From: Alphaproteobacteria bacterium
GTDB taxonomy: Bacteria > Pseudomonadota > Alphaproteobacteria > Thalassobaculales > Thalassobaculaceae
DNA length: 64,000 nt
Direction of reading: 5' to 3'
Assembly (NCBI GenBank): GCA_024742275.1
Contig: JANSYS010000013.1
Location: 27,704 to 91,703 of the forward strand
Shown here in pieces: positions 8,316 through 50,849 of this stretch (positions are counted from its first letter, which is position 1; every line of letters starts with the position of its first letter). A model generated the notes under the pieces. That model made no database searches. It was not told the origin of the DNA and saw only the letters and a program-made list of their open reading frames with translations. The translations under genes and the position numbers were made by a program.

Positions 8316-8316
8316 G

Positions 8317-31843: not shown

Positions 31844-33091
31844 ATGCCGCGCAAGCTCAGCAACGCCCTCACACCGCTGACCGTGAAGAACGCCAAGCCG
31901 GGACGGCACGCCGACGGCGGGGGGCTGCATCTGCTGGTGAAGGAAAGCGGGGCGCGGTCCTGGGTCTACCGGTTCATGCTCAACGGCAAGTCTCGCGACG
32001 TGGGGCTCGGCCCGGCGGCGGGCGCGGATGCGGTTACCCTCGCAGATGCCCGCGACAAGGCGGCGGCACTGCGGCTGAAGGTGAAGGCAGGCATAGATCC
32101 CATCGAGGAACGCGACAGGGAGGCCGCACAGGCCCTTGCAGCGGCTCAGGCGGCGAAGATTGCGGGGATTACCTTCAAGGCCGCTGCAGAGGCTTACATC
32201 GCCGCTAATGAGGATGGCTGGCGCAACCTGAAGCACCGCCAGCAATGGACCAACACGCTTGCTACCTACGTCTACCCGGTGATCGGTGATCTGCCGGTCG
32301 CGGAGGTCGACACCGCTCACGTTCTGGCGATCCTTGAGCCGATCTGGAAGACCAAGGCCGAAACCGCGAGCCGGATACGTGGACGGATCGAAACCGTTCT
32401 CGACTCCGCCAAGGCCCGGGGCCAACGCAGCGGCGAGAACCCGGCCCGCTGGCGCGGTCACATAGCGCTGATCCTGCCGCCGCGAACCAAGCTGGCGCGG
32501 GGCCACCACAAGGCGATGCCCTATGACGCCGTTCCGGCGTTCATGGAGCGACTGCGCACCCGCGAGGCCATGGCGGCCCTCGCCCTGGAATTCACGATCC
32601 TGACGGCGGCACGGACCGGGGAGGTCATCGGCGCCGACTGGTCGGAAGTGGATCTTGAGAACGCGGTCTGGATTGTTCCGGGAGAGCGCATGAAGGCGGG
32701 CAGGCCGCACCGGGTTCCCCTGTCACCGCGCGCAGTTGAGATCCTGAAGACCGTCCAGCCACTCGGCAGCCGCTGGCTGTTCCCCAGCGACCGGGGCGGA
32801 AAGCTCTCAGGCATGGCTATGAGCATGCTGCTGCGGCGGATGAAGGTCGATGTCACCGTTCACGGTTTCCGAAGCGCGTTCCGCGATTGGTCCGCTGAGT
32901 CGACAGGCTACGCGCATGAGGTCTGCGAGATGGCGCTGGCTCATGTGATCGGGAACAAGGCGGAGGCCGCATACCGGCGCGGCGATCTGTTCGAGAAGCG
33001 CCGGAAGCTCATGGACGAGTGGGCTCGCTTTTGCGCCACACCGAAACCTGAGGGTGCGACAGTCACTCCCATTCGGGAGGCAATGGCATGA
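31844..33091 (+). CDS. Tyrosine-type site-specific integrase, P4-like (DUF4102 N-terminal arm-binding domain)
   Basis: LTPLTVKNAKPGRHADGGGLHLLVKESGARSWVYRF N-terminus. Catalytic ARTGEV (R), HGFRSAFRDW (HxxR) and LAHV...AYRRGD (H..Y). Confidence 0.9.
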   Translation: MPRKLSNALTPLTVKNAKPGRHADGGGLHLLVKESGARSWVYRFMLNGKSRDVGLGPAAGADAVTLADARDKAAALRLKVKAGIDPIEERDREAAQALAAAQAAKIAGITFKAAAEAYIAANEDGWRNLKHRQQWTNTLATYVYPVIGDLPVAEVDTAHVLAILEPIWKTKAETASRIRGRIETVLDSAKARGQRSGENPARWRGHIALILPPRTKLARGHHKAMPYDAVPAFMERLRTREAMAALALEFTILTAARTGEVIGADWSEVDLENAVWIVPGERMKAGRPHRVPLSPRAVEILKTVQPLGSRWLFPSDRGGKLSGMAMSMLLRRMKVDVTVHGFRSAFRDWSAESTGYAHEVCEMALAHVIGNKAEAAYRRGDLFEKRRKLMDEWARFCATPKPEGATVTPIREAMA

Positions 33092-33789: not shown

Positions 33790-33861
33790 TCCGCTCGCTC
33801 CCTCAGCTTAGTCCCACATCGTCCGGACAATCCCGTCCGTGACCTTGCGGGAACAGGAACC

Positions 33862-34050: not shown

Positions 34051-34053
34051 GCC

Positions 34054-34281
34054 ATGAGCGCGCAGCACAAGCGAGGTGGGGTTGTCCCTCTGCCTTTCGC
34101 CACGCCCCGACAGGCCGCGTTGGCCGTCCTCACCAAGTTCCCTGACCTCCGACTGAAGACTGCCGGGTTTCTTGGCTATGTGTGCGTCGCGGATCAACTG
34201 ACCGACAAACAGCACGGGTGGCTCGTCTCGATCCTCGAAAAGCGAGGCCTGCCGCCTCTCTCGGACGGGTGGGGCGACTGA
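34054..34281 (+). CDS. Small hypothetical island protein
   Basis: 75-aa ORF starting 3 nt after the excisionase stop and ending in a TGATG overlap with the next ORF. Confidence 0.5.
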   Translation: MSAQHKRGGVVPLPFATPRQAALAVLTKFPDLRLKTAGFLGYVCVADQLTDKQHGWLVSILEKRGLPPLSDGWGD

Positions 34282-35099
34282 TGTTCGGCCCCCTGCTCCT
34301 ACCGTCGCCGGGAGAGCGGCATACGCTCTTTTTGAAACTTCACCGTGGGCCGCATTTCGGTGAAGTTTCAAACGTGCCGCTCCACCCGAGAAGGCCAAGG
34401 TTTCCGCCGATCCGACGGAATGGCACGGCTGCTGCAATAAGATATCTAAACTTAGTTGTGGCAGCCTATTCCGCTCCAAAGCCCACCGGCAGAGGCGGAG
34501 CCCGCAACCGAGCCGACCGTGTAAGCCATTGTCTGAGCGAAGCACAGGTTGCCAACCTGATCGCGGCAGCCGCTCATGCGTCGGAGATCGGGTTACCGCT
34601 CAATCGCCTGACAACGATCCACTGGGAGGCCGCTGGCATCCCTCTGGAGGCCATGGCGCGAGCGACCGGGCGGTTTGTTGACTTGCTCTCGAAAGCGGTA
34701 GCGCGACACGGTGCGGGAACGGCGTGGCTGTGGGTTCATGAGAACGGCGCCAGCAAGGGGGCACACTGCCACCTGCTCGCTCACGTTCCGCCGGTCGCGG
34801 TCGGGACGATCACCAAACGGCAGCGGGGATGGCTGAAGCGCATCACCGGCAGGCCCTATCGGCGGCGTGTGATCCTGAGCAGACCCATTGGCGGGCGCGT
34901 AGGCCTGGAAGCGACCAACCCAGCCCTTCATGCCGCAAACCTTCAGGCGGCGCTCTCCTACTGCCTGAAGGGTGCGGACCCGGCGGCAGTAGCGGCGTTC
35001 CAACTGCGCCGCTGTGAGCCGGGCGGAAAGATCATCGGGAAACGCTGCGCCACCTCTCAGAACATCGGCCCGAAGGCCCGATGGGAGGCACGTCGATGA
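34281..35099 (+). CDS. Hypothetical protein with HUH (HCH) and YxxK motifs; possible Rep/relaxase-like HUH endonuclease (YfjJ/Gp2-like)
   Basis: WLWVHENGASKGAHCHLLAHV (HCH at 34764..34772) followed by SYCLKG (YCLK at 34959..34970). Start chosen at the TGATG overlap; the N-terminal limit is uncertain. Confidence 0.5.
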   Translation: MFGPLLLPSPGERHTLFLKLHRGPHFGEVSNVPLHPRRPRFPPIRRNGTAAAIRYLNLVVAAYSAPKPTGRGGARNRADRVSHCLSEAQVANLIAAAAHASEIGLPLNRLTTIHWEAAGIPLEAMARATGRFVDLLSKAVARHGAGTAWLWVHENGASKGAHCHLLAHVPPVAVGTITKRQRGWLKRITGRPYRRRVILSRPIGGRVGLEATNPALHAANLQAALSYCLKGADPAAVAAFQLRRCEPGGKIIGKRCATSQNIGPKARWEARR

Positions 35100-35791
35100 C
35101 CAGACGATCAAAGACCAAGACCGACACCGAGAAGCGACCGCCGACCGAGCTGCAATTGCAGACCGCTGACGGGGAGAGCGGCGACGCGGCGTTGGCCAGG
35201 GCCATGCTCGAACCCTATGTGCGGCATGGGCTGATCGCGGGAACCTTCGCGGGACGCTCGATGGCGTCAACGGAAGATAAACCCCGGCTCATGGAGAGCG
35301 CTGCCTTCATCGACGCTCAGGCGACGGCGGCAGCGGGTGCGGACATGTCTCTGCTCAGCCAAATGCTGACCGCTCAGACAATCACCCTCGACAGCATCTT
35401 CACCGAGCTATGCCGATGCGCGGTCCTTAACCTGAGCGACTACCCGCATGCCGCCGACCGATACACCCGGCTTGCCCTGAAGGCCCAATCCAACTGCCGG
35501 GCAACCATGGAAGCCCTCGCCAAGCTTCACCAGCCGCGAGAGCAGACTGTGCGGCATGTCCATGTGGGCGACGGCGGCAAGGCCATCGTTGCCGAGCAGT
35601 TTCACCAACACGCCAGAGGGGGCCGGAATGAAGAATCCGCCGAACAATCCCATGCAACCGCCTCAACTGGCAGCGGCGCCAAGATGCTTGGCCACGACGC
35701 GGGCGGGCACGCCCTGCCAATCCCCAGCGGTGAAAGGACGGAGACGGTGCCGAATGCACGGCGGCACAAATCCCGGCGCTCCAAAGGGTAA
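35096..35791 (+). CDS. Hypothetical island protein (type common in alphaproteobacterial integrative elements)
   Basis: ATGA overlap with the previous ORF and GGGAGG 7 nt upstream. No domain recognised. Confidence 0.55.
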   Translation: MTRRSKTKTDTEKRPPTELQLQTADGESGDAALARAMLEPYVRHGLIAGTFAGRSMASTEDKPRLMESAAFIDAQATAAAGADMSLLSQMLTAQTITLDSIFTELCRCAVLNLSDYPHAADRYTRLALKAQSNCRATMEALAKLHQPREQTVRHVHVGDGGKAIVAEQFHQHARGGRNEESAEQSHATASTGSGAKMLGHDAGGHALPIPSGERTETVPNARRHKSRRSKG

Positions 35792-35886: not shown

Positions 35887-35914
35887 GACCGCAATGGGTG
35901 GGAAGCGGTCGTTT
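35887..35914 (+). terminator. Hairpin between convergent genes (weak intrinsic terminator candidate)
   Basis: GACCGC-12 nt-GCGGTC followed by GTTTG. Confidence 0.3.
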
Positions 35915-35924
35915 GAGCAGTCAG

Positions 35925-38900
35925 CTATTCAGCGCTTAGCCGCACCACCGCATGCCTGCCGCCGACCGCGTCATCTGCGATACGAAGCACATGGGAATGG
36001 TGGGTCAGCACGATCACCTGCGCTTCCTCGGCGAGATCCGCCAGCGCTTCGAGCATCGCACCAGTCCGCGTGTCGTCGGATGAACTGAGGATATCATCCA
36101 GGATCAGCGGCGGCGCCTGGCGGGCACGAGCGAGCTCGAGGTATCCCGCCATACGCAGGGCCAGAAATAGCTGGTGGCGCGTTCCCTCCGACAGAGCTTC
36201 GACCAGTTTGAGCGAGCCGTCTTTCGCTCGCGCTGCGAGCTTGTCGCCTTTGTCGCCCGGTTGGGTCACCAACTCCGGATACCGACTCTGCGTCATCCTC
36301 GCGAAGAACCGACCGGCCGCCTCCAGCATCGGTCCCTTGTTTTCCTGGCGGTAGCGCCCGAGCGCCCAGCTCAACGCCCTCTCGCCCGCTCGGATGCGCG
36401 TGTAGTCGGCGATCTGCTCGACCAAGTCGGAGGCTAGGATCTCGCGCTCCTGCTGCAGGCGCGCGATCTCGTCGGAACCCGACATTTTCTCAAACGCCCC
36501 CCGGGCAACAGCAGCCGCCTGTCCGGCTGAGTCACGGCGCGCCATGACTTGGTCCAGTTCCGCCTTTAGCTGCTCACGCTCGGTGTTCAGCTCGTCCTCG
36601 TCACTGTCATCGAGCATCTTGAGCGCCTCCTCGATCGACGTGGCGGAGAGTTCCTCGACGATCTCCCTTTCGCACTCGCCGACCGTGTTGTTCAGGCCAG
36701 CCCTCTTCACGCCGTCCCGCACCGCCAACATCAGGTCCGAAAATTCCGTTTCTCCGAATTTTGCGGCTAGGTCAGCCAACTCGGATCGCTTCTCCTCGGC
36801 CTTGACCTTCAGTTGCCCCAGGCTCTCGTCAAATCCAGCGATCCGCTCCTCGAGATCGGCCACGCTCCTGTCACGGGCGTCAGCGGCGTCCAGCCGCGAT
36901 TTCAGCTGATCGATAACGAGTAGGAAGTCGGCGCCGTGCAGGTCCTCAGGCGCTTGGAGATCCGTTGCGTCAAGGAATGCCTCGAAACCTTCCTTCACCC
37001 CGGCTTCGTCCACTTCGATCTGCTCGATGCGACGGCGGGCAGTTTTCAGATCGGCGCGGGCGCCGCTCAGGTCAGGCAACCGGTTCAGAATGCCCGACAC
37101 CTGATCGTGGCCGCTATCCTGCGGGATCCAGGTTTCCCTCAAGGCGGCCTCGAAATCCGCTTTCCAGGTCTCGACCGTCTCTGTGGCCTCTGATAGCTCG
37201 CTCTGCCGCTTTTTGACCGTGGCTACGGCGGTCGCCTTTGCCTTGAGGGCTGACTCGCGCTTGCGCTGGTGTTCCTTGAGTTCCTCCACGCATTGTTCGG
37301 CGAGGTTCTGTAGTGCAGAGAGCTTCATTTCCGCGGGCACCGATGCTCCGACGGCCGAGAGCGCCTCGGTGAGCCCAGCGACGTGCTCTGCAGCCGCTTC
37401 CTGCAGCGCTTTCGACTCTCGCTTCCTCGTTTCAATCTTCCTCAATGAGGAGGAGACAGACACCTTCGCTTCGATCAGCCGGCGCAGGCCGGAGATTCCG
37501 CTAACATTGACCTCGTCGGGGATAAGATCCGCGATCTCCTTGTCGACGCCGGCCTGACCGTCCTGCGCGGTCTCAAGCTCCTTCGCCAACCGGTTCATAG
37601 CCACCTTTTCCCGGTCGCGGTCGCGCATTGCGGCGTTCACTTCGCTCAGGCGGTCCGCATGGCGGATCCGGTCCTCGAAGACGCGGTCCGTATCAGCCAC
37701 CGCCCCGGAAAGGCGGGCGCGAAGATCGGCGACCTCATCTGCGGTGAGCGGCCCGTTGAATTCAGCGATCAGAGCGTCGCGGGCGGTCAGCAGCGCCTTA
37801 AGATCGGAGTCGGACGACCTTGCCATGTCGCCGAAGGACTGAATGCGCTCCTCGGCATTCACGTGGATATCCCGCCGTCGGGCGATGTCGCTCTGAATAC
37901 GGCCAACTTCGCTGCGCGCCTCTTCATATCGCCGCTGCAGATCCTCCACATCTCCATGATGGGGAAGCTCAAGGGTATCCAGCCATCCGGCAAATTCGAT
38001 GCCGATCCCAACACCGCCGAGGGTGATCTGCAACTCCTCCCGCAGCATCTCCTGAGACTTCGCGTTCTCTAGTTGGTCGGTCACGAGGTTTCGCTCCCTG
38101 CTCGCCTTGAGCAGGGCGGCTAGAGCCGACGGGTCCGCCGCCTCTTCGATGGAATCGAGTTCGGCCGACGCCGCCTCAAGGCTCTGCCTAGCGCTATCAA
38201 GTTCCCGCTCCGCAGCATGCAGGGCCGAGTTCGTTTCGGTGTGCAGCTTGATCAGGCCGGAAAGATGACTCACCTCCTGCGGCGTCAGGCCGAGATCCGC
38301 ACCGCCCCCTTCGATCGCGACATCCAGTTCGCCGAGGACGCGCTCGATCTTGTCCTGCGCCTCCTTCTCCTCGTCCTTACGGTTCGGGAGGGCCTGTCGG
38401 CGATCCCGGATCATGATCGCGCTGGCTGCGAAATCCTCAATCGCCGCCCGGTGCAGAGTGACGGAATCCGGTTGGGGAATTGCTGCGAGTTGCTCCTGGA
38501 GGGTGGCCCTGTTCTCGCTTGCCGCGGCGGCCCTCGCTTGGAGTGCGCTCATGTCCTGGACAACACCATTGAGCCGGTCCTGGTCCGCCTCGCTCGCAAC
38601 CTCTCCTTCGCCAAGCGTCTCGAGATCGTTGAGCGCGCGCAGGCGGTCGCGGTATGGCCTGAAGGCGGACAATCTGCCTTGGATCCGCGCGATCTGAGCG
38701 CCGAGCCTGACGAACTCTTCCTTGGCCTGCTCGAATGCACCGTTCTGGGCCTCCAGCTCCTTTCGGGTCGATTGATAGGCGTTATTCGACGTCTGGAGAT
38801 CGCGGATCTTGGCGTCGATCTCCTTGATCTGGTTCGACAACACCTTCGCTGTCGCGCTGTGCTTTCCGCTCCAGATGGCTGCAGCCTGTTCGTTCATGGC

Positions 38901-39398
38901 GTCGAGGCGGGCCGGCAGGTCCTGCAGTCCGGTGGTTCCGGCGAACAGGAGCTCGCCCAGACTTCCCTCTCCCCTTGAGATGGCCTCGCCGCCGGCGTCC
39001 AACTGCTCCCGGTTGACCGAGAAGGTCCGCTCGAACTCGGCACGGTCGAACCCATCCACCACCGCTGCGAAGGGGTTGTCCGCAAGGGGCCGGTCGCTCA
39101 CGTCGACCATGTCATCCCTGTGTTTCTTCAGCCGGTAGGCCTCGACCTGGCTCTGGGCGACGGTCGCCCGGGCGCCGACCTTGAGCATGCCCTGGGCGGC
39201 GAAGCCCATCTTCGACTGGTTGTGGAAGCGGAACAGCAGGTCGGAGATCGCCTCGCGGATCGTCGACTTCCCCGCCTCGTTCGGCCCGTAGATGATCTGG
39301 AGATCAGTCTCTCTTCCCGGAATGCCTGATTTCTGGAATTCCAGGCTTCTGCTGTCGAAATGACCGTAGCGGACCAGCTCCAGCGTCTCAAATCTCAT
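35925..39398 (-). CDS. SMC/SbcC-like AAA ATPase, YhaN-type (1157 aa)
   Basis: MRFETLELVRYGHF..IIYGPNEAGKST (Walker A), about 900 aa of coiled coil, LSEGTRHQL signature and PLILDDIL Walker B. The ATG at 39398 overlaps the upstream stop (ATGA). No CxxC hook seen. Confidence 0.88.
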   Translation of the reverse strand: MRFETLELVRYGHFDSRSLEFQKSGIPGRETDLQIIYGPNEAGKSTIREAISDLLFRFHNQSKMGFAAQGMLKVGARATVAQSQVEAYRLKKHRDDMVDVSDRPLADNPFAAVVDGFDRAEFERTFSVNREQLDAGGEAISRGEGSLGELLFAGTTGLQDLPARLDAMNEQAAAIWSGKHSATAKVLSNQIKEIDAKIRDLQTSNNAYQSTRKELEAQNGAFEQAKEEFVRLGAQIARIQGRLSAFRPYRDRLRALNDLETLGEGEVASEADQDRLNGVVQDMSALQARAAAASENRATLQEQLAAIPQPDSVTLHRAAIEDFAASAIMIRDRRQALPNRKDEEKEAQDKIERVLGELDVAIEGGGADLGLTPQEVSHLSGLIKLHTETNSALHAAERELDSARQSLEAASAELDSIEEAADPSALAALLKASRERNLVTDQLENAKSQEMLREELQITLGGVGIGIEFAGWLDTLELPHHGDVEDLQRRYEEARSEVGRIQSDIARRRDIHVNAEERIQSFGDMARSSDSDLKALLTARDALIAEFNGPLTADEVADLRARLSGAVADTDRVFEDRIRHADRLSEVNAAMRDRDREKVAMNRLAKELETAQDGQAGVDKEIADLIPDEVNVSGISGLRRLIEAKVSVSSSLRKIETRKRESKALQEAAAEHVAGLTEALSAVGASVPAEMKLSALQNLAEQCVEELKEHQRKRESALKAKATAVATVKKRQSELSEATETVETWKADFEAALRETWIPQDSGHDQVSGILNRLPDLSGARADLKTARRRIEQIEVDEAGVKEGFEAFLDATDLQAPEDLHGADFLLVIDQLKSRLDAADARDRSVADLEERIAGFDESLGQLKVKAEEKRSELADLAAKFGETEFSDLMLAVRDGVKRAGLNNTVGECEREIVEELSATSIEEALKMLDDSDEDELNTEREQLKAELDQVMARRDSAGQAAAVARGAFEKMSGSDEIARLQQEREILASDLVEQIADYTRIRAGERALSWALGRYRQENKGPMLEAAGRFFARMTQSRYPELVTQPGDKGDKLAARAKDGSLKLVEALSEGTRHQLFLALRMAGYLELARARQAPPLILDDILSSSDDTRTGAMLEALADLAEEAQVIVLTHHSHVLRIADDAVGGRHAVVRLSAE

Positions 39399-40687
39399 GA
39401 CCCATCCCCCTTGCTCGCAGCCGCCGCGGAAGCCACCGCCTCCGCTGCCATGGATTCGAGCCACCCGGCGATGTGGTCGGCGCTTTCCGGATCCAGGTCG
39501 GTTAGTGGGTTCAAGTGCCCCGGGTGTGCGCGAAGGCCCGGAGGCAACTTTGCGAGGATGGCCTCGAAGTCCTTGACCAGCTCCTTCACCAGGTCGCTGT
39601 CTGCGGTCGCACCGGTGCGGATCATGTCCGTCAGGTGCGCAAGTGTGCCTTTATCAATCTCCGCGCGCTGATTATCGCCGGCGGACGCAACGATGCCGAT
39701 CTTCTCGACGGCGACCCGATCGGTGCGGGCCTGAATGTTTGTCTGGATGAGATCGAGGAGATCGTCGCGGCCGCGCCGCACAGCTGGAACAAGTGCCCGC
39801 GGCACAGCGAGTTCAGGCCGCAGGAGCGCTCGACCATGGTCCGATGCGTCGATCAGAGTGCGCGCGATGTCTCCCGCCTCGGCCTGGATGTCGTTGAAAG
39901 ACTCGGCTGAGCTGAGATCGATCGGAACGCGCTCGAGAACGACCGCCGATGTGTCGAACCACTCGATGTTGATCCGGCCGTCAGACACTGTTCCTAGAAC
40001 AGCCCGTCCTTGCCCGGTCTCGCCCATGTCGCGTCCCTGCGGGATGCCCGGGTAGACGATCCAAGGCCGCTCAGGCGTCCCCTCCTGGAATACCTGGCTC
40101 TTGTGGACATGACCGAGGGCCCAGTAGTCGTAGCCTTTGTCCCCCAGTCTGGCTGGCGAGGTCGGCGCATAATCGGCATGCTCGGAGAATCCGCCGAGAG
40201 AGGTGTGCAGCATGCCAATATTCACCCATCCCTGAACCGGATCTGGGTAGCCTGGCGTCATATCCGCGGTGACACTGTTGTCCCTAAACGACGCGCCATG
40301 GATCGCAACCTCGTGTTCCTCGAAGCGATGGGTTGATGCCTTGGGCTTGAAGACGGTCAGTGTTTCAACGTCGGGGAATGGCGGCTTCGCCACCGTCTCG
40401 GCGTCGTGATTGCCGAGGATGATGAAGGTGTGAACACCGGCCTTGCCGAGGCGGCGCAAGCATTCGGCTAAGTAGAGGCCGGTGCGCATGTCCTTGGTCG
40501 AGCCGTCGTATAGGTCACCCGAGATCAGCAGCGCGGCGACCCTCTCCTCGATGGCCTTATCGACGATCCGCTCGAACGCCGCACGCGTCGCTACACCAAT
40601 AGCCTCGGCGAGATCGGCATTCCGCCGGCTCAGCGCCTTAAGCGGGCTGTCTAAGTGGAGGTCGGCGGTGTGGATGAAGCGGAACAT
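39395..40687 (-). CDS. Metallophosphoesterase DNA-repair exonuclease, SbcD/Mre11-like (YhaO-type)
   Basis: MFRFIHTADLHLD, SGDLYDG, ILGNHD and ALGHVH calcineurin-like motifs. Start chosen at the ATG at 40687. Confidence 0.88.
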   Translation of the reverse strand: MFRFIHTADLHLDSPLKALSRRNADLAEAIGVATRAAFERIVDKAIEERVAALLISGDLYDGSTKDMRTGLYLAECLRRLGKAGVHTFIILGNHDAETVAKPPFPDVETLTVFKPKASTHRFEEHEVAIHGASFRDNSVTADMTPGYPDPVQGWVNIGMLHTSLGGFSEHADYAPTSPARLGDKGYDYWALGHVHKSQVFQEGTPERPWIVYPGIPQGRDMGETGQGRAVLGTVSDGRINIEWFDTSAVVLERVPIDLSSAESFNDIQAEAGDIARTLIDASDHGRALLRPELAVPRALVPAVRRGRDDLLDLIQTNIQARTDRVAVEKIGIVASAGDNQRAEIDKGTLAHLTDMIRTGATADSDLVKELVKDFEAILAKLPPGLRAHPGHLNPLTDLDPESADHIAGWLESMAAEAVASAAAASKGDGS

Positions 40688-40984
40688 GACCTCTGAGCCT
40701 GCGGGGGATTTTGAGTGGCGTTTCAAGCATATCCTGAACAATTTTTGATAGTATCACTAAATGTGGCATTGTCATTTGGCGACCGGACGCAACCAGATCG
40801 GTATGGCATGGGGAAACCCCCATTGGATTGGGAAACGAGGCGTGGAGGGGGCCATGGAAGCGATCTCACTATAGGCATCTCCGTATATCAAGTCCGCATC
40901 TGTTCAGACCGAAGATAGACCACCTACTTGACGGGCTTCACCAGGATTGCAACGTAGACGGGCAATTTAGCCGGAGACTGGCGA

Positions 40985-43900
40985 GTGACAAGAGAAGAGA
41001 TCGAAAGCACCCTGTTGCGTGGCGGCGCGGTTCCGGTCGGTGATTCTTCCGGCGGTGAGATCTTATTGGCCGAACCGAACGCGCGGCGGGCCGCCTCCGT
41101 CCTGTTCGAGCAACTCCGCGGCGCATCGGCGGACGAGTTGCGCAATGACGATGACTTCTTCGAGGCACTCGAGACCGCGTTCTTGGCTGAAGATGATAAG
41201 GACACCAAATCGCCCGCGTCGCCTGAGGATCCGAGTGGCTTGGTCCGCGGCCCCACCAGCCAGCCTTCGAAGGTCTGGCGCCTCAAGCTGATCGAGACGC
41301 AGGGATTTGGTGGGCTGAACGCAGTTTCTGGCGACACCTTCAGGTTCGAGGTGGCAGGCCGGGACTTCTGTATCGAAGGCCAGAATGGAAGCGGCAAGAG
41401 CTCGCTCACCAACGCTGTGTTGTTCGCCATGACGGGTCAAATCCATCGCGACCAATTTGGCCTCGTCGATGCCAAACGCTGCGAGCCGGTGGCCGCCGAC
41501 AACGGAAAGACCATCGCCGAATGGCCCCCGATCGCCATTTACCCAGAAGATTGGGGTATCGACCGGCCGGATGTTGATGTTCAAGTTACATTGACCTTCA
41601 CCTGCGGAGACGATGACTGCACCGCCATCCGGCGCTTGCACGGCGCACCCGATAATTTGGCCGACGACCACAATATTGCCCCCGAACTCACCGGTGTACG
41701 GACGTTGATCGACGCCGGGCTGCTGATGCCGATGCGCGTCCAGCACATCCGGATGGCGAACCCGAACGACAACCAGTCTCTTCTAGCCCTGATCCGGCAG
41801 CTCATTGGCCTGGATCCGCTTATCCATGTTGCGGAGCTCGCAACGTCGCTTGGGCATGGCGGCCAGCGATTCCGAAAGTACGCCAAGGACAAGGATATCG
41901 GCGGACGGGTAGAACGGATCAACAAGCTCCTCGAGGGAGCCAATGAGGTTTTATCGGAGCAGGATCCGGACCTCGGAATTGAGATGGAGGTCGACGGGAC
42001 GACACCCGTCGCCGAAGAAGATCTGCGCCTATTGCAGGAGGCCGCGGAACGCGTTGAAAAACTTCAGGCCGATGGCTTCGAGGATCTCCGCAAACTGGCC
42101 TTTGATGAGTTCGATCCCGCCAACACCGAACACCAGGCGCGCGTGAGCCAGGCTGTCGCCGATCTGGCGACCGGCGTTGAAGACCTGCGGAAACCTGCGA
42201 ACGCTCCAGCGATTCTTCGCGACTTGAGAGTCCTATCGAGCAACGTCTCCGATGGGCACATCGACCGACTGCTGACTGCCCTATCGAAGGCGCGGCAGGA
42301 CCTTGAAGATGCCGAAATCTGGGCAGAGAAGCAGGAAACCGATGCTCGGCTTCGCCTGAAAGCCATAGCCGCACCGCACTTTCAGGACTGCGAAGATCCA
42401 TTGTGTCCATTGTGTGAACAGCCTTTGAAGATTCCGCAGCATACAACGTTGTTGACGGATCTGAAGGTTTTGACCAAGGACGCAGAAGCGGCGCAAACGC
42501 GCCTGGAGGATGCATGTCGGCGTATCCTGGATGACATAGTTCGCGCCCGGGACGAGGCTGTTCCAGAAGCATTCAGGAAAGTTCAGCGCTTCCGCGCGAA
42601 AGAGGAGTTCCGCGCCCACGTCGCCGCGATGTTGTTCGGTGACAACGATGCCGCCGATACGCTCCCAGGCCTTAAGGAGCGCGCGGATGGCATCCTACAA
42701 GCCGTTATTGGCCCGCTTGAGGAGTTTGAGTTCGGTGAGAATGTGCCTGAGCCGGAGAACGCGCCCTCGCGGATCCGGTGGATAGTCGATCACTTAGACG
42801 ATGTCTGCAGTGCGGCACAAAACTGGACTGACGAAACGCGTCAGCCTTACCGGGATGCCTGGTCAGGGTTGTTCGCCGAGGCGGAGGAAAATACCGCCCC
42901 TCTGTCATTGACGACCGAAATCGGAGCGTTGCAACGAACCATCGCCTCCATTGTTCCGTATCGCACCGCCGGCAAAAAGCTCGAAGACGTTATCAAGGAG
43001 ATCGCTGAATATAACGCCATCGTCAAACGCCAGATACTCCGCGACGCGATCGCCAAAAGCCTGTCGCCACTTAGAGAACTGATGATGTTGGTCAACCGGA
43101 CGACACAGCAGACCATAAACGATGTCTCCGGCTTGGTCGAACAAGTCCACGCTGAAATCTACAACTCCGAAGCCCTGCTCTACGACAAGACTGATGTGAA
43201 GGAGACGCGGAACAAACAATCCCTGTCGTTCCGTGGCCGCCTCGGCAAGGACCAGGACTGGACCATCGATGCTGCCGTGCTCGCCAACACGTCCTGGATG
43301 CGGGGAATTCTCTGGTCGTTTGTTTTTGCAATCCGGCAACGCGCCATTGAGAGTGCGGGTGGCTGCCCATTTCCGCTGGTGATGCTGGACGATCCGCAGA
43401 TCACATTCGACACCCGTAACCAGAAGGGTTGGGTTAAGTGGCTCGGCCTGTCCGACGGCCTACGCAAGGACCATCCAGTCCACATCGTGATCACAACCCA
43501 TGGCCACGAATTCGCTCAGGAGATGCAGGCCTCAAAGGGCGTCACAATGGGAGCGATAGAAACTGCCCGAAGACCTGGCGCCCCGGCACAACTCGTGCTC
43601 GCCGACTTCGCGGAAATTCGCTTCCAGCAGATGGAGGAGTTGAATTCGGACCCGAAAGCGCGCGAATTAATCTCGGCAATCCGGGTCTTGGCAGAGACCC
43701 TGCTGCGCTTCGCTTTGTCGGCGATCGACCCCAAGCGGGTGGAACGAAAAGACGCAAATATAGGAAGGTTGGTCGAGGAAATTGCACAAAGTCGTCAGAA
43801 TGGAGAGGCGCCGTTTACCGACGGTGTCTTCGAGCGCCTGATCAAACTCAAGGATGGCAACACCATTCGGTTCAGCGAGCTGAGCGAACCTCACCACAAA

Positions 43901-44890
43901 CTGACGGAAACGATCACGGTGCGAGAAGGTCGCCAGGCCTACAAATTCTGGAAAACCAGTCTCTTCCCAGCTCTTCACGCGATTTGGGAATCATATCGAT
44001 TCCTCCAGAAGACTGTATTCATCGACGGCGGAACCGTACGCTTGCCGGCCAACACCAACCATCAGCCGATCCGTTCGAACGATCTGGCGTCCGTAAGACC
44101 GGTGATCGTCGGTAGGGTTTCCGCCTACTCTGATGGACGCCTTGCGTCGGCGCTGCAGCTAGTACCCAGTAGTGACACCGAAGTCATCGACCTCCAGTCG
44201 AGAGCAGTCTATCGCCTCGAGAAGGACACGCTGTCACCGGTTGCCCAAGTCGGCGATTTCCTTCTCACCAGACTGGATCAGAAGACGACACACCGAAACT
44301 TAGTGATCGAGGACCGGGGGGATCATCTGATCGCCCGAAGACTGCTGGAAGACGACGGCAATAAGGGGTTCGCGGTGATGAGTGCCGCGTCCTCCAATCC
44401 GAAGGAGACGCAGAAAGCGGTCGTATCGCGCATGGAGGGTGCACGGCGTTTCAAGATTGCCGGCATCCTTTTCGCTTCCCAGACCCTTGCCGCAGGAGCC
44501 CTCGTCGACGGTCAGACCGAGGCCACCGCGTTGGACGCAACGGACCCAGCCGTGCAAACTTTGGTCGCCGGCACCGAGGTGTTCGAAGTCCAGGGGTCCA
44601 GTGCCGAGCCATTGGCGCTGAATGGTCAGTTTCTTCTCGCGAAGCCACCGTCACGGGACCTGTCGCGATCGATAGCGGATCTCGACGGAAAGCCGGTTAT
44701 CGCGGAGACGACAGACGGCGACGCCTACTTCAAGAGGCTCCGCAAGATCGCGGACAACATGGTCGCGCTCGAAAGCCTGGATAAGACCGGTCTTGAGAGT
44801 CTGATCGTACTGGAACTTGAGGAAGTGGTAGGCCGACCAGGCTTGCGACAACTGCGTGAGGTCGTCGGCGTCGTTTTCGACAGGGCTTGA
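40985..44890 (+). CDS. 1301-aa Rad50/RloC-like ABC-type ATPase with a coiled-coil CxxC hook and two C-terminal LexA/cI-like (peptidase S24-like) domains
   Basis: GTG start with GGAGA 7 nt upstream. Walker A GQNGSGKSS (aa 132-140), CPLC at aa 474-477 inside the coiled coil, Walker B PLVMLDDPQ (aa 797-805) and TTHG. C-terminal patterns are GDFLL..LIARRL..IAGILF and VQGSSAEP..GQFLLA..YFKRL..VVGVVF. Confidence 0.85.
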   Translation: MTREEIESTLLRGGAVPVGDSSGGEILLAEPNARRAASVLFEQLRGASADELRNDDDFFEALETAFLAEDDKDTKSPASPEDPSGLVRGPTSQPSKVWRLKLIETQGFGGLNAVSGDTFRFEVAGRDFCIEGQNGSGKSSLTNAVLFAMTGQIHRDQFGLVDAKRCEPVAADNGKTIAEWPPIAIYPEDWGIDRPDVDVQVTLTFTCGDDDCTAIRRLHGAPDNLADDHNIAPELTGVRTLIDAGLLMPMRVQHIRMANPNDNQSLLALIRQLIGLDPLIHVAELATSLGHGGQRFRKYAKDKDIGGRVERINKLLEGANEVLSEQDPDLGIEMEVDGTTPVAEEDLRLLQEAAERVEKLQADGFEDLRKLAFDEFDPANTEHQARVSQAVADLATGVEDLRKPANAPAILRDLRVLSSNVSDGHIDRLLTALSKARQDLEDAEIWAEKQETDARLRLKAIAAPHFQDCEDPLCPLCEQPLKIPQHTTLLTDLKVLTKDAEAAQTRLEDACRRILDDIVRARDEAVPEAFRKVQRFRAKEEFRAHVAAMLFGDNDAADTLPGLKERADGILQAVIGPLEEFEFGENVPEPENAPSRIRWIVDHLDDVCSAAQNWTDETRQPYRDAWSGLFAEAEENTAPLSLTTEIGALQRTIASIVPYRTAGKKLEDVIKEIAEYNAIVKRQILRDAIAKSLSPLRELMMLVNRTTQQTINDVSGLVEQVHAEIYNSEALLYDKTDVKETRNKQSLSFRGRLGKDQDWTIDAAVLANTSWMRGILWSFVFAIRQRAIESAGGCPFPLVMLDDPQITFDTRNQKGWVKWLGLSDGLRKDHPVHIVITTHGHEFAQEMQASKGVTMGAIETARRPGAPAQLVLADFAEIRFQQMEELNSDPKARELISAIRVLAETLLRFALSAIDPKRVERKDANIGRLVEEIAQSRQNGEAPFTDGVFERLIKLKDGNTIRFSELSEPHHKLTETITVREGRQAYKFWKTSLFPALHAIWESYRFLQKTVFIDGGTVRLPANTNHQPIRSNDLASVRPVIVGRVSAYSDGRLASALQLVPSSDTEVIDLQSRAVYRLEKDTLSPVAQVGDFLLTRLDQKTTHRNLVIEDRGDHLIARRLLEDDGNKGFAVMSAASSNPKETQKAVVSRMEGARRFKIAGILFASQTLAAGALVDGQTEATALDATDPAVQTLVAGTEVFEVQGSSAEPLALNGQFLLAKPPSRDLSRSIADLDGKPVIAETTDGDAYFKRLRKIADNMVALESLDKTGLESLIVLELEEVVGRPGLRQLREVVGVVFDRA

Positions 44891-45079
44891 ATATTGATCA
44901 GTTTGTTCCTCTGAGATCATTCGTACGTTCACCTTGGGCCGAACGTTCCTAAAGCATCGGACGTCCGCTTTGGGTCGACGGCAGATCGCCAGCATTCGAT
45001 GGATCGCCGATTGCCAACGTCGTTCCATCGGTTCTCAATGGTGCCGTGGGGGAGGTCGTTCCTATTGGAGGAAACGACT

Positions 45080-45718
45080 ATGCTTCCTGATACCAGCCTT
45101 TCAGAGACATCAGCTGTTCGCCCGGCACCCTGGAACAAGGGCCGTCTGGTCGGTCAGAAGCGTCCGCTGAAGCCCAAGGATGTCTGGGGCATCCGTGTGC
45201 GCCTTGAGATCAGCGGCAGCAAGCGGGATCTGGCACTGTTCAATCTGGCGATCGACAGCAAGCTGCGCGGATGCGACCTGGTCAGCTTGAAAGTGGAGGA
45301 CGTCCAGGTCAGCGGCCGTATTCGCGAACGGACCACGGTCCTCCAGCAGAAGACCGGACGCCCGGTTCAGTTCGAACTGACTGAGCCGACACGCAAGTCG
45401 GTCGAGGCATGGATCGACCATGCCGGCAGGCGTCCTGGCGACTACCTCTTCCCGAGCCGATGGAGGCTCAGTCCCCATCTGTCGCCACGACAGTATGCCC
45501 GGATCGTTCATACCTGGGTGGAGAGTGCCGGGCTCGACAGTTCGGCCTACGGGACCCACACGATGCGACGCACGAAAGCGGCCCAGATCTACCGCAAGAC
45601 CGGAAATCTGCGGGCCGTCCAGTTGCTGCTCGGCCATACAAAGCTTGAGAGCACCGTGCGGTATCTCGGCATCGAAGTGGACGATGCCCTGACGATCTCC
45701 GAGCAGATCGAGCTGTAG
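45080..45718 (+). CDS. Short tyrosine-type recombinase/integrase (212 aa)
   Basis: ATG at 45080 with a GGAGGA SD. Motifs RGCDLVSLKV, HTMRRTKA (HxxR) and LLGHTKLESTVRYLG (H..Y). Confidence 0.85.
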   Translation: MLPDTSLSETSAVRPAPWNKGRLVGQKRPLKPKDVWGIRVRLEISGSKRDLALFNLAIDSKLRGCDLVSLKVEDVQVSGRIRERTTVLQQKTGRPVQFELTEPTRKSVEAWIDHAGRRPGDYLFPSRWRLSPHLSPRQYARIVHTWVESAGLDSSAYGTHTMRRTKAAQIYRKTGNLRAVQLLLGHTKLESTVRYLGIEVDDALTISEQIEL

Positions 45719-45749
45719 GGCTGACGCGGGTCCTCCTGGCGGTCGCCTG

Positions 45750-46070
45750 TCAGTGGGCGGCCGCCAGCGGCCTAATGCTGCCTTCGATATCGCTTTTCTT
45801 CTCGCGGGCGGCACTGTCGAGCTCGTACCGAGCCTGGAGGTTCATCCAGAACTCGGCAGAGGTGCCGAAATAGCGCGCGAACCTCAAGGCCGTGTCGGCG
45901 GAGATCGCCCGCTCACCATGGAGAATGGCTGTGATCCGGTTCTTCGGCACGTGGAGGTCCTTCGACAGCCTGTAGGCCGACACTCCCAGGGGTTCCAGGA
46001 ACTCCTCGCGCAAGATGACGCCAGGATGCTCCAGGGGAATTGCTGCACCTGGTCTCTCTTCCAAGCTCAT
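45750..46070 (-). CDS. higA: HigA-family antitoxin (XRE HTH)
   Basis: HPGVILREEFLEPLGVSAYRLSKDLHVPKNRITAILHGERAISADTALRFARYFGTSAEFWMNLQ. Confidence 0.88.
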   Translation of the reverse strand: MSLEERPGAAIPLEHPGVILREEFLEPLGVSAYRLSKDLHVPKNRITAILHGERAISADTALRFARYFGTSAEFWMNLQARYELDSAAREKKSDIEGSIRPLAAAH

Positions 46071-46080
46071 GCTTCCCTCC

Positions 46081-46362
46081 TCAGTGATAGTCGACTAACT
46101 CGACATTCTCGGCACCGCCATCGGACCATCTGAAGCAAATCCGGTATTGGTCGTTGACCCGGACGCTGTACTGACCTTCGCGATCTCCCGAGAGCTTCTC
46201 CAACCGGTTCCCCGGCGGAACGCGAAGGTCTTCGACATCCCGGGCCGCATCGATCATCAGCAGCTTCCGCCGCGCCCGGCGCTGGATGTCGGGCCCGAAG
46301 CCGCGGACATAGGTCCCTTCGAAAACCGTGCGAGTGGCCGCGTCCCGGAAGCTTCTAATCAT
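46081..46362 (-). CDS. higB: HigB-family toxin (RelE/ParE superfamily, 'plasmid maintenance system killer')
   Basis: MIRSFRDAATRTVFEG...PPGNRLEKLSGDREGQYSVRVNDQYRICFRW; located upstream of higA. Confidence 0.88.
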   Translation of the reverse strand: MIRSFRDAATRTVFEGTYVRGFGPDIQRRARRKLLMIDAARDVEDLRVPPGNRLEKLSGDREGQYSVRVNDQYRICFRWSDGGAENVELVDYH

Positions 46363-46628: not shown

Positions 46629-46648
46629 CTATCCCATCCGAGTTCTAT
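46629..46648. repeat. Right copy of an imperfect direct repeat (candidate attR)
   Basis: CTATCCCATCCGAGTTCTAT, matching 31691..31716. It abuts and overlaps the ATG of the sigma gene. Confidence 0.35.
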
Positions 46649-47192
46649 GACGGCACATCGCGATCCTGCGGAGCTTTTCGTCGAGCATCGAGCGGATCTG
46701 GTGAAATACGCCACGCGGATCCTCGGTTCCCGCAGCAGTGCCGAGGACGTGGTGCAGGAGGCCTATCTGCGCTTCGCCCGCCACGCCGATGGCGGGGAGG
46801 CGCTCGGCGCGCGGGGCGACCGGATCCTGGAGCCGGTGCGCTACCTGTACCGGATCGTACGAAACCTCGCCTATGACTGGGGCCGGCGGCCGAGCATGCC
46901 GCTGGTCGGCGACCTGGATGACGGGCTGCTCGCCCGGGCCGCCAGCACCGTGACCAGCCCGGAGGAGAACCTGCGCTGGCGCCAGGATCTCGGCCGAGTC
47001 GAGCGGGCGCTGGACAGCCTGCCGGACCGCACCCGCCAAGCCTTCGAGATGCACCGGCTGGGCGGCTTGCCGCTAAAGGAGATCGCCGCCCGGCTCGACA
47101 TCTCGGTGACCCGAACCCACCAGCTCGTCAAGACCGCCCTCACCGTCTGCGCCGAGCAGCTCGAAGACGAGGCCGGTGAGGATGGCCGGTGA
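46647..47192 (+). CDS. ECF (FecI-like, iron-starvation) RNA polymerase sigma-70 family factor
   Basis: Region 2 (EDVVQEAYLRFAR...YLYRIVRNLAYDW) and region 4 (LPDRTRQAFEMHRLGGLPLKEIAARLDISVTRTHQLV). Confidence 0.88.
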   Translation: MTAHRDPAELFVEHRADLVKYATRILGSRSSAEDVVQEAYLRFARHADGGEALGARGDRILEPVRYLYRIVRNLAYDWGRRPSMPLVGDLDDGLLARAASTVTSPEENLRWRQDLGRVERALDSLPDRTRQAFEMHRLGGLPLKEIAARLDISVTRTHQLVKTALTVCAEQLEDEAGEDGR

Positions 47193-48392: not shown

Positions 48393-50849
48393 TTGACGAT
48401 GAGGGGACTGAAGACGATGACATTGCGGGATCGGGGTCCGGCACGGGCCGGCAACAGGCGGGTCTGCCGCGCAGCACTGAACGGGGCGCTCGCGGCGAGC
48501 GTTGCCTCTCTCATCGCCGGCTCGGCTCTGGCGGAGGGTACGGTGACCACTAGCCTCCCTGCAGCGAAGCAGCTCGCCCAGGCGGAGACGAGGAGCTTCG
48601 ATATCCCGGCAAAGCCGCTGGAGCAGGCGCTGATCGATTTCGGTCAGCAGGCGGGTTTACAAGTGTCCTTCGACCCGGCGCTGACCGAGGGCCTGAACTC
48701 CAACGCCGTCAGCGGCACCCTCACACCGGACCTCGCCCTGCGCCAGCTCCTGTCGGGGCTCCCGATCACCGCCAGCTTCAGCGGCGCCAACACGGTGACC
48801 CTGAGCCGGTTGAGCTCGGATTCCAGCGCGATTCTGCTCGGCGCGGTCGTGGTGCAAGGCGAAGGCCAGACGGCGACCGGCCCTATCGACGGTTATGTCG
48901 CCACCCGCAGCGGCAGCGTGTCCAAGACCGACACGCCGATCATCGAGACCCCGCGCGCGGTCTCGGTGGTAACCGCCGACGCGATCAGCGACCGCAAGAC
49001 CATCAGCGTCGAGGATAGCCTGCGCTATGTCCCCGGCGTCCAGGTCAACGGCTATGGCAACGACCCGCGCTTCGACCAGATCAAGGTTCGTGGCTTCACG
49101 GTTACCAGCACAGCCGATTTCCGCGACGGGCTCCGCCAGACCAACACCGGGTGGCTGTCGTATTTTCACACCGAGCCCTACGCGTTGGAACGTATCGACG
49201 TCGTGAAAGGTCCGAACTCGGTACTGTTTGGTCAGTCAAGCCCGGGCGGTATGGTCAACCGCGTCACCAAGCGGCCGACCGAGGACACCCGCGGCGAGGT
49301 CGAGGTCCAGCTCGGCACCGACGAGCATCGCCAGGGCCAGTTCGACCTCTCCGGTCCGGTGACCGAAGACGAAAAACTGCTCTACCGCTTCGTCGGCGTG
49401 CTCCGCGAGAGCGAGTCCGAGCTTATCGGAGTCAATAACGACGTCCAGTTCATCGCACCCTCGGCCACCTGGAAACCCACCGAGAAGCTAAGTCTCACGT
49501 TTCTCGGCGAGGCCCAGCATTTCGAGACCGCCGGCTCGGCCCGTCCTTACCAGTACGCCTCGGGAGAGCTCAGCCACTTTTGGGCCGGTGACGAGGATTT
49601 CGACGGTCTGAAGCAGACCCAGTACATCGCCGGCTATGAAGGCCGCTACGAGTTCAACGAGGTCTTCGCCCTGCGCCAGAACTTCCGCTACGGCACGGTT
49701 GAGACGGAGAACCAGTACCTCTCCAGCTCGATGACCGGCGACGGCCGCACGCTCTCGCGCACGACCTACGGCGTCTATGAGGACATGGACAACCTCTCGG
49801 TCGACACCGCCGGCGAGGCCCGCTTCACAACCGGCGAAGTCGAGCACACGGTGATGATCGGCATCGACTACTCGAAAATCGACGCCAATGTTCAGTACGC
49901 CTACGGCACCGGGCCGAGCATCGACATGCTGAACCCGGACTATCATCAGGACGTCTCCCGTCCGGGCACGATCCTGGTCGACCAGAGCATCGACGCCCAC
50001 CAGCTCGGCTTTTACGCCAGCGAACAGTTCGAATGGGGCCGCTGGCGGTTCAGCGGCGGCCTGCGGCATGACCGGGCCGAGAGGGAGACCACCGACAACC
50101 TGACCGGCGGCATCAGCGACGGCGAGAACAGCGCCACCACCGGCAGCGCCGGCCTGCTGTACCTGTTCGACAGCGGCTTCGCGCCCTATGCCAGCTACGC
50201 CACCTCCTTCACTCCGGATTTCGGCACCGACATCAACGGCGAGTCCTTCGAGCCGACCGAGGGCGAGCAGTACGAGATCGGCCTGAAGTACCAGCCCCCG
50301 GGCCGCGATAGCATCTACACGATGAGCTTTTACAACCTGGTTGAAACCAACCGGAAGACGCAGGACCCCGACAATATCGCCAATAGCATCCAGACCGGTG
50401 AGCAGCGATCGCGTGGCCTGGAGCTCGAGGCGGCGATGAAGCTGACGGAGAATTTCGATCTGGTGGCCGGCTACTCCTACATCGACGCCGAGATCACCAA
50501 GAGCAACAACGGCGACGAGGGCAACGTGCCGGTCGGCGTGGCCGGGCACATGGCCTCCGCCTGGGGTAACTACACCTTCACCTCCGGAAAGCTCGCCGGG
50601 TTGGAGGTCGGGGGCGGCGCGCGCTACGTGGGCGAGACCTATGACGACAGCGCCAACACCAACAAGAACGATGCCGTCGCCATGTTCGACGCCCGGGTCA
50701 GCTACGATCTGGACATGCTCGCTCCGGGCGCGTCGATCGGCGTTTCCGCCACCAACCTGACCGACGAGGAGCACATCACCTGCGAGAGCGGCTACTGCTA
50801 CCGCGGCCGCGGACGCGTGGTGATCGGCAGCCTGACCTACCGGTGGTGA
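48393..50849 (+). CDS. TonB-dependent siderophore receptor with an N-terminal STN signalling domain (FecA/FpvA-type transducer)
   Basis: STN domain (FDIPAKPLEQALIDFGQQAGLQVSF), plug (ETPRAVSVVT), beta-barrel and terminal aromatic ...LTYRW. Start is uncertain (48393 TTG, 48399 or 48417 ATG). Confidence 0.9.
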   Translation: MTMRGLKTMTLRDRGPARAGNRRVCRAALNGALAASVASLIAGSALAEGTVTTSLPAAKQLAQAETRSFDIPAKPLEQALIDFGQQAGLQVSFDPALTEGLNSNAVSGTLTPDLALRQLLSGLPITASFSGANTVTLSRLSSDSSAILLGAVVVQGEGQTATGPIDGYVATRSGSVSKTDTPIIETPRAVSVVTADAISDRKTISVEDSLRYVPGVQVNGYGNDPRFDQIKVRGFTVTSTADFRDGLRQTNTGWLSYFHTEPYALERIDVVKGPNSVLFGQSSPGGMVNRVTKRPTEDTRGEVEVQLGTDEHRQGQFDLSGPVTEDEKLLYRFVGVLRESESELIGVNNDVQFIAPSATWKPTEKLSLTFLGEAQHFETAGSARPYQYASGELSHFWAGDEDFDGLKQTQYIAGYEGRYEFNEVFALRQNFRYGTVETENQYLSSSMTGDGRTLSRTTYGVYEDMDNLSVDTAGEARFTTGEVEHTVMIGIDYSKIDANVQYAYGTGPSIDMLNPDYHQDVSRPGTILVDQSIDAHQLGFYASEQFEWGRWRFSGGLRHDRAERETTDNLTGGISDGENSATTGSAGLLYLFDSGFAPYASYATSFTPDFGTDINGESFEPTEGEQYEIGLKYQPPGRDSIYTMSFYNLVETNRKTQDPDNIANSIQTGEQRSRGLELEAAMKLTENFDLVAGYSYIDAEITKSNNGDEGNVPVGVAGHMASAWGNYTFTSGKLAGLEVGGGARYVGETYDDSANTNKNDAVAMFDARVSYDLDMLAPGASIGVSATNLTDEEHITCESGYCYRGRGRVVIGSLTYRW

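Follow-up and report, generated by a model that had tools for sequence, protein, structure and literature searches.

The window analyzed here, a 64,000-nucleotide stretch of the Alphaproteobacteria bacterium assembly GCA_024742275.1 (contig JANSYS010000013.1, positions 27,704 to 91,703), carries a 9.1-kb cassette that joins two coupled genes for a Mre11/Rad50-like nuclease pair to a divergently transcribed gene for a 1301-residue protein, called BIG throughout this report. In BIG, a LmuB/Rad50-like ATP-binding cassette (ABC) ATPase with a zinc hook is continued by a helical domain and by two S24 barrels of the LexA kind. The comparative data are best read as indicating an autonomous BIG, for which the nuclease pair is an optional partner that recurs beside it and travels with it as one cassette in this lineage. 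To the more specific proposal, that BIG is an autonomous sensor of DNA or DNA damage with a proteolytic switch, the pair being optional and both being carried in a single island cassette, we assign a probability of about one half. A function of BIG in defence or in DNA damage is one that we infer from context. Judged by sequence, what appears to be new is a coiled-coil ABC ATPase of the conflict type with an S24 fusion and facultative SbcCD-type pairing, and what is already known is the YhaN/YhaO pair.

Domain architecture of BIG

The ATPase of BIG consists of two half-domains separated by helix-rich arms, with CPLC, the sole CxxC of the protein, midway between them (Table 1). An ATPase of this layout, Rad50-like and interrupted by coiled coils with a CxxC, is one of the marks by which RloC and PrrC are recognized. 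Over the three BIG clades (A, B and C), the Walker A residues G132, N134, G135, G137 and K138 are invariant, as are N768, S770, R773, D802, Q805, D809 and N812 in the C-lobe, and the hook residues C474, P475 and C477 are retained down to 19% identity. The best sequence relatives of BIG in the PDB are Rad50 proteins, which align at residues 115-152 in the N-lobe and, with chain 5da9, at residues 714-849. Among ATPase models, those of LmuB and PbeC/DndD, both defence ATPases, come closest; the LmuB model PDLC03859 was matched by 20 of the 20 BIG family members tested (best E 4.9e-19), and the window protein itself gives a weak, partial match to it (2.9e-10, residues 360-848).

The last 270 residues of BIG are an internal duplication (hhalign of barrel 1 against barrel 2, 92.8% probability, E 4e-7). 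An AlphaFold2 model of residues 850-1301, with a predicted local distance difference test (pLDDT) score of 80, matches LexA catalytic domains in Foldseek at the last barrel, among them the LexA C-terminal domain 1jhe with an E value of 4.9e-4; target-normalised TM scores are 0.57-0.67, with root-mean-square deviations of 2.3-3.0 Å over 103 columns. S1206 and K1250 stand in register with S119 and K156 of LexA, and the last barrel thus combines the S24 fold with the S24 dyad; A1207, P1209, K1250 and R1251 are invariant across the clades, and S1206 is at least 90% conserved. Barrel 1 aligns with E. coli LexA (hhalign, E 6.7e-5), its GRVSA strand falling on GRVAA, and should be inactive because Thr1082 and Ala1117 replace the Ser and Lys of the dyad. 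A GxLFA segment ahead of barrel 2 was considered as a second cleavage-site strand and rejected, since hhalign assigns it to barrel 1 as the final strand, the counterpart of VVGVVF at the C-terminus of barrel 2.

Between the ATPase and the barrels lies the helical middle domain, in which R900, E904, H970 and H971 are invariant over all BIG clades. Searches of its sequence against Pfam (E up to 10) and PDB profiles returned nothing consistent, and the Foldseek list of its model is rich in HEPN proteins (2q00, 2hsb, 3o10, 8xeh, 1jog, 1wwp, 8yuf), none of them significant. The arrangement R900/E904...H970 resembles the catalytic Arg-Glu-His triads of PrrC (R320/E324/H356) and RloC (R692/E696/H737), with which it shares an R-x3-E...H pattern (PMC2610378). 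The spacing from E to H differs, being 66 residues in BIG and 41 in RloC, and no AAA_13, RloC or PrrC model is among the matches of BIG. The strict conservation of the R/E/HH site speaks for an effector enzyme more than for a scaffold, and by analogy the middle domain is a candidate effector, HEPN-like or anticodon-nuclease-like.

Size and distribution of the BIG family

Homologues that are 29-82% identical to BIG fall into 82 clusters. At about 20% identity, another clade, of 96 clusters, is still homologous over the full length (hhalign probability 100%), and a further member is encoded on a Pseudomonas IncP plasmid. When residues 865-1301 were used as a phmmer query against 1.84 billion representative proteins, 182 clusters were retrieved, essentially all of them with the BIG architecture or fragments of it, and the C-terminal module was confined to proteins of about 1250-1350 residues (lengths within the BIG family are about 1290-1340). 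The family is therefore rare, with a fixed domain order. Across the three clades, at 19-60% identity, the key residues of every part are invariant (Walker A, CPxC, Walker B/D-loop, R900/E904/H970/H971, A1047 and K1250). No relative was found by tblastn in 50,697 phage records or in a scan of IMG/VR, and a phage origin of BIG was rejected on that ground.

The neighbours of BIG are varied. In individual annotated loci, it lies beside Gabija together with a methyltransferase with NotI, MmeI and RelBE, beside a type I restriction-modification (RM) system with a Schlafen-like gene, and beside MmeI/DEAD/T5orf172; AbiEii adjoins it in annotated loci. Elsewhere, BIG accompanies SIR2 and PIN genes in a region resembling an integrative and conjugative element (ICE), an Hhe-like helicase and Tn7-like genes, or, on the IncP plasmid, SLATT and a reverse transcriptase. 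A further 28 loci with 114 neighbours, annotated with Pfam and PADLOC, gave a heterogeneous set of mobile-element genes (relaxase, RepB, resolvase, integrase) and defence-type genes (Mokosh MkoA and MkoC, reverse transcriptases, methyltransferases, Fic). Many loci are on plasmids, chromids or ICE-like regions, close to replication, partition or conjugation genes. These neighbourhoods, in a sample that has no matched control, are typical of cargo of defence or mobile-element conflict.

Two observations concern the immediate surroundings of BIG genes. Within the clade of about 30% identity, at least six loci (L003, at 13878-14399, L014, L027, L033, L034 and L059) have an open reading frame (ORF) of about 170 codons, with no Pfam match, directly downstream of BIG; it is absent from the window, and could encode an accessory or regulatory partner of BIG in that clade. 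In L009, the one locus examined from a gammaproteobacterial metagenome-assembled genome, a perfect gamma-type LexA box, CTGTTCGTGACGACAG, stands about 243 bp upstream of BIG, a single case that may be due to chance.

The nuclease pair

Classified by sequence, the two minus-strand genes encode a pair of the known YhaN/YhaO (SbcE/SbcF) type. The 1157-residue ATPase matches Pfam AAA_27, the family of B. subtilis YhaN/SbcE, over residues 1-207 (8e-49, 166.4 bits against a cut-off of 22). It also matches SMC_N, its C-terminal lobe matches Rad50 chains in the PDB, and its translation contains the Walker A motif GPNEAGKST and the signature LSEGTRHQL. The protein has just two cysteines and not one CxxC, and therefore no zinc hook. 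The 430-residue nuclease matches Pfam Metallophos (6e-14, 53 bits against a cut-off of 21.5), harbors all five Mre11/SbcD motifs (DLH, GDLYD, GNHD, GMLH and GHVH), and remains below the cut-offs of the NCBIfam sbcd and Mre11 models (46.8 against 77.65 for sbcd). The AAA_27 match above the gathering score, the adjoining five-motif phosphoesterase and the coupling of the two genes through an ATGA stop/start overlap (tcATGAgat) place the pair with YhaN/SbcE and YhaO/SbcF. Canonical SbcCD differs, as the window pair has no CxxC, no SbcD_C or SbcC_Walker_B match and a sub-cut-off sbcd score, and is island cargo rather than a core repair locus. By homology, the pair should recognize and cut DNA ends or hairpins. 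A role of SbcE/YhaN in double-strand-break repair has been demonstrated (PMC2811018); a literature search on AAA_27 yielded nothing relevant.

Homologues of the nuclease were found by tblastn in 232 plasmid or chromid records, mostly from Alphaproteobacteria and Burkholderia, versus 9 records for BIG, a ratio of about 25. The pair family is thus common on alphaproteobacterial replicons and is distributed independently of BIG, and it is abundant on plasmids and chromids of that class. The contexts of BIG-free pairs range from defence-like to metabolic. For example, on the Aminobacter plasmid pAA03 (L065, 1-17500), a BIG-free pair lies amid a restriction endonuclease, a large AAA ATPase, a RecB-like nuclease, HEPN and DUF4365 genes, and in view of these neighbours the pair may itself reside in defence islands.

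Linkage between the nuclease pair and BIG

The preliminary description of this DNA, made from the sequence alone, had read the three genes as one combination and proposed that homologues of the large ATPase be surveyed for conserved co-occurrence with the pair. Among 47 near-full-length, non-redundant BIG loci, an SbcD/YhaO-type gene was present within 10 kb in 8, against about 0.5 expected on the assumption of 3 such genes per 5-Mb genome (Poisson P ~6e-8), an excess of about 16-fold over this rough expectation. The remaining 39 loci (~83%) have no such pair within that distance. Co-occurrence was therefore found, and found to be facultative.

Two non-orthologous kinds of partner occur, in varying orientation. 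An AAA_27/Metallophos pair accompanies BIG homologues that are far more distant from the window protein than the 82%-identical one: it is located upstream of BIG and on the same strand in L015, L039 and L040, downstream in L043, and about 6 kb away, beyond the Hhe-like helicase, in L062. Canonical SbcD and SbcC adjoin BIG in L060, from Bradyrhizobium plasmids, and canonical SbcCD is near BIG in L032 and L033, from Sphingomonas. Gaps of 100-300 bp separate pair and BIG in L015, L039, L060 and the window, and the juxtaposition recurs in three BIG clades. The next commonest neighbours, a serine recombinase and the unannotated 170-residue ORF, are found in 5 loci each. In L032, a 499-residue protein with a weak HATPase_c_3 (MORC-like) match is encoded between SbcCD and BIG (8164-9660).

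That the trio moves as a unit in the lineage of the window is indicated by comparison with L001, the locus of an 82%-identical BIG relative. Here, blastn aligned two segments only, 35896-40687 (77%) and 40950-44974 (83%), and neither the spacer nor the flanks of the cassette align, which identifies the trio as a discrete cassette in unrelated surroundings. Direct reading of the sequence confirmed the three ORFs, the ATGA overlap and the 297-bp divergent spacer that had been described, and the lower G+C content also held, at 62.9% for the pair and 58.5% for BIG, a gap of 4.4 points, against 66.5-68.5% for the flanking core. A search for terminal repeats at the ends of the cassette found none.

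The alternative that survives best, which we nonetheless regard as unlikely, is that the two modules are coincidental neighbours, an independent repair-type pair and an orphan ATPase that share hotspots or islands with no functional interaction. Defence islands do juxtapose unrelated systems, each module is found apart from the other in many contexts, and the BIG-adjacent YhaO-like proteins do not form one clade, that of L015 being closer to a BIG-free protein from an Aminobacter plasmid (56%) than to the other BIG-adjacent ones. Against coincidence stand the excess of adjacency, repeated with two non-orthologous kinds of Mre11/Rad50 nuclease, the failure of any other family to recur beside BIG at a comparable rate, and the joint movement of pair and BIG between the window and L001.

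Proposed mechanism and alternatives

In bacterial immunity, coiled-coil ABC ATPases (Lamassu, Wadjet, RloC, PARIS) are coming to be seen as main sensors of DNA structure, and the step from sensing to effector is an active question. Fused to a LexA-type module, a sensor of this kind could pass a DNA or RecA signal to an irreversible proteolytic switch, a route that lends itself to testing.

In the mechanism that we propose for an autonomous BIG, the protein would dimerize through its zinc hook, and its LmuB/Rad50-like head would read DNA ends or aberrant replication intermediates. At rest, the two S24 barrels would form a pseudo-dimer that keeps BIG off. The trigger could be an encounter of the head with ends or replication intermediates of a phage or plasmid, or RecA filaments on single-stranded DNA (ssDNA), or both. 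The active barrel would then cut BIG, most plausibly at the Ala1047 strand, in a UmuD-like geometry of cleavage in trans within the pseudo-dimer, and the freed ATPase and effector part would halt growth or replication of the invader, with the R/E/HH helical domain acting as the effector by analogy with RloC. Where a Mre11/Rad50-type pair is present, it might supply BIG with its signal, in the form of breaks or ssDNA, or degrade DNA. The pairing with two kinds of such nuclease suggests that nucleases regarded as repair enzymes have been recruited into conflict systems, and the analysis yields a defined 9.1-kb cassette for cloning and concrete residues for mutation.

A narrower version of this proposal is rather improbable in our estimation: that BIG is a single-protein immune sensor in which the coincidence of invader DNA and RecA-ssDNA would elicit self-cleavage and release an RloC-like RNase, the Mre11/Rad50 nucleases serving as signal generators. 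If true, it would mean that the SOS co-protease signal is wired straight into abortive infection.

Several observations weigh against the proposed sensor and switch. In the ATPase, most BIG members have Asp in place of the catalytic Glu of Walker B, and clade C has lost the H-loop His (H839), so that the ATPase may be slow, or a binder only. In the middle domain, the best HEPN-like fold match, 2q00 (probability 0.87, E 0.34), is non-significant, as are all others (E > 0.3), and the canonical HEPN motif Rx4-6H (PMC3710099) is absent from the sequence. For the barrels, the Pfam Peptidase_S24 score of 18.1 bits is under the cut-off of 23.3. A Gly follows the Ala or Cys at the known cleavage sites of LexA, cI and UmuD; the residue after A1047 is Tyr, Lys, His, Arg or Gln and never Gly, which makes self-cleavage at A1047 doubtful. 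As for regulation, 350 bp upstream of 40 BIG genes were scanned for SOS boxes (GTTC-N7-GTTC, GAAC-N7-GAAC, CTGT-N8-ACAG and GAAC-N4-GTTC), and scattered matches at only 3 of the 40 loci, with none in the window, give no evidence that LexA regulates BIG. Lastly, some BIG genes stand solo among housekeeping genes, as in L002, or by IS66, some loci have no defence or mobile-element genes near, and both the missing control for the neighbourhoods and the assumed gene density behind the expected linkage count are to be reckoned on the same side.

Quite improbable, in our view, is a role in DNA repair or in the maintenance of mobile elements. On that view, BIG would act as a Rad50 paralogue linked to RecA/SOS, with a UmuD/LexA-like S24 module, and would help to process breaks or the replication intermediates of plasmids and integrative elements, in some cases alongside nucleases of the SbcCD type. 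S24 domains are classic clients of RecA filaments, and the best fold matches of the C-terminal model include PDB entries 8trg and 8gms; the repair function of SbcE/YhaN and the many loci beside replication, partition or conjugation genes also accord with such a role. It sits less well with the patchy and rare distribution of BIG, with its insertion as a single gene amid RM, Gabija, Abi, reverse-transcriptase and toxin-antitoxin genes, with the lack of SOS boxes, with ATPase models that are closest to defence proteins, and with an invariant site that hints at an effector and not a scaffold. Least probable of all is an obligate three-gene machine in which BIG and the pair need each other, the strict form of the three-gene combination of the preliminary description: the single block kept in two unrelated contexts and the close juxtaposition in three BIG clades speak for it, but the pair is independent and widespread (~25 times commoner on plasmids than BIG), most BIG loci are without it, the partner may be of the AAA_27 type or SbcCD, in varying orientation and from more than one clade, the G+C contents of the two modules differ, and the spacer is not conserved.

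Relation to known systems

The preliminary description had also matched the trio to no named defence system, and this held up. In PADLOC 2.0, BIG and the pair gave weak and partial matches to ATPase models only (LmuB, mad3, PbeC, PtuA and GajA) and no named system; the YhaO-like protein scores 17.9 on DS9_1, for which the cut-off is 420. In NCBIfam (June 2026), no family was above its cut-off for the trio, and the Pfam matches to BIG are generic or sub-threshold. A literature search found no S24/LexA-like fusion to an SMC/Rad50-type ATPase, with the reservation that a description may be contained in the ABC-ATPase classification of Krishnan et al. 2020. Millman 2022 was considered as an earlier description and rejected, as "S24" there is a table number.

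RloC has been proposed to be DNA-damage-responsive. Like BIG, it is a single polypeptide in which an ABC ATPase split by coiled coils with a CxxC hook is followed by a C-terminal helical domain, in RloC an anticodon nuclease of the HEPN type, and both are stand-alone genes that are sometimes near RM systems. With its two additional S24 barrels, BIG exceeds RloC in length by about 500 residues, and its homology to RloC cannot be demonstrated. In RloC, the C-terminal domain is a nuclease that is regulated by the zinc hook and by DNA (PMC2610378, PMC3458546).

Lamassu provides the closest ATPase, LmuB, which like that of BIG has a zinc-hook motif and an atypical Walker B (PMC10586767). By analogy, the two may share the logic of a DNA-sensing ATPase that controls an effector. 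BIG is nonetheless not a member of Lamassu, because it has neither the LmuA effector nor LmuC, the middle component of type II systems: both are absent from the trio, and no small or effector-type neighbour is conserved over about 50 loci. Instead, in BIG the putative effector and the switch are fused in cis. With SbcCD and Mre11-Rad50, BIG shares the Rad50-like head and the hook, and differs in its extra domains and in being mostly without a nuclease partner.

With LexA, UmuD and lambda cI, BIG shares the fold of the last barrel, the Ser/Lys dyad within GxSxxP...KR and the GRVxA strand. It differs from them in that it has no helix-turn-helix, in that its S24 domain is duplicated with one copy dead, and in the fusion to a 1000-residue ATPase. 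BIG is not a canonical S24 repressor.

Genomic setting of the cassette

The cassette is cargo of a low-G+C island of about 15 kb (Table 1). The mobile setting that had been described stood in respect of the tyrosine integrase on the left and the truncated integrase, HigA and HigB on the right. The replication gene that had been placed in the island did not, as its support is one sub-threshold Pfam match (REP_ORF2-G2P, E 0.0013), with no PHROGs match. A search for direct repeats as att sites over 28-50 kb returned chance-level repeats only, and no tRNA gene is present in the window. Scans for sigma-70 promoters and terminators gave background-level signals only; a GGAG stands 8 nt ahead of the GTG start of BIG.

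Table 1. Features of the cassette and its island, in window coordinates
Feature	Position	Strand	Remarks
Tyrosine integrase, left end of island	31844..33091	+	Pfam Phage_int_M, Arm-DNA-bind_3, Phage_integrase
Cassette, nuclease pair and BIG, 9.1 kb	35896..44974		blastn against locus L001
YhaN/SbcE-like coiled-coil ABC ATPase gene, 1157 aa	35925..39398	-	ORF call and domains
YhaO/SbcF-like Mre11/SbcD-type metallophosphoesterase nuclease gene, 430 aa	39395..40687	-	ORF call and domains
Divergent intergenic spacer, 297 bp	40688..40984		No SOS box; not kept in the 82%-identical relative
BIG, 1301-aa LmuB/Rad50-like zinc-hook ABC ATPase with helical domain and two S24 barrels	40985..44890	+	GTG start
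BIG ATPase N-lobe, residues 96-300	41270..41884	+	Walker A EGQNGSGKS (131-139)
CPLC zinc-hook motif, residues 474-477	42404..42415	+	Centre of helix-rich arms (301-700)
BIG ATPase C-lobe, residues 701-860	43085..43564	+	Signature-like NxSWxR; atypical Walker B/D-loop LDDPQxTFDxRN; H839
Helical middle domain, residues 865-1035	43577..44089	+	R900-x3-E904 and H970-H971; AlphaFold2 pLDDT 77
GRVSA strand and S24-like barrel 1	44090..44479	+	A1047 invariant; T1082/A1117 at the Ser/Lys positions
Linker and S24 barrel 2	44480..44887	+	Ser1206/Lys1250 dyad, GxSAEP...FKRL
Truncated integrase, right end of island	44999..45718	+	Right end spans 44999..46362
HigA	45750..46070	-	
HigB	46081..46362	-	
Extracytoplasmic function (ECF) sigma factor, core-type, right of island	46647..47192		
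TonB-dependent receptor with STN domain, core-type, right of island	48393..50849		

To the right of the island, the ECF sigma factor and the TonB-dependent receptor, with a possible anti-sigma ORF between them (47284-48282), form a FecIRA-like set of core G+C that marks the right boundary. Just left of the island, at 28897-31452 on the minus strand, lies the gene for an 851-residue hybrid histidine kinase (5TMR-LYT, PAS, HisKA, HATPase and receiver domains); because the G+C content is already lowered there (0.61-0.65), the left boundary is uncertain. Between the integrase and the cassette (33088-35791) are three or four ORFs that matched nothing in Pfam or PHROGs: one at 33088-33789, one at 33808-34545 on the minus strand or 34182-35099 on the plus strand, and one at 35081-35791, the coding strand near 34 kb being ambiguous.

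A second patch of low G+C content extends over 55000-62306 of the window, dropping as low as 0.49 at 56-58 kb, where the core has about 0.67. The patch contains a 458-residue ORF with no Pfam match (56405-57781) and the gene for a 1479-residue protein (57867-62306) whose sole match is DUF6603 (E 1e-135), and it may be another horizontally acquired segment.

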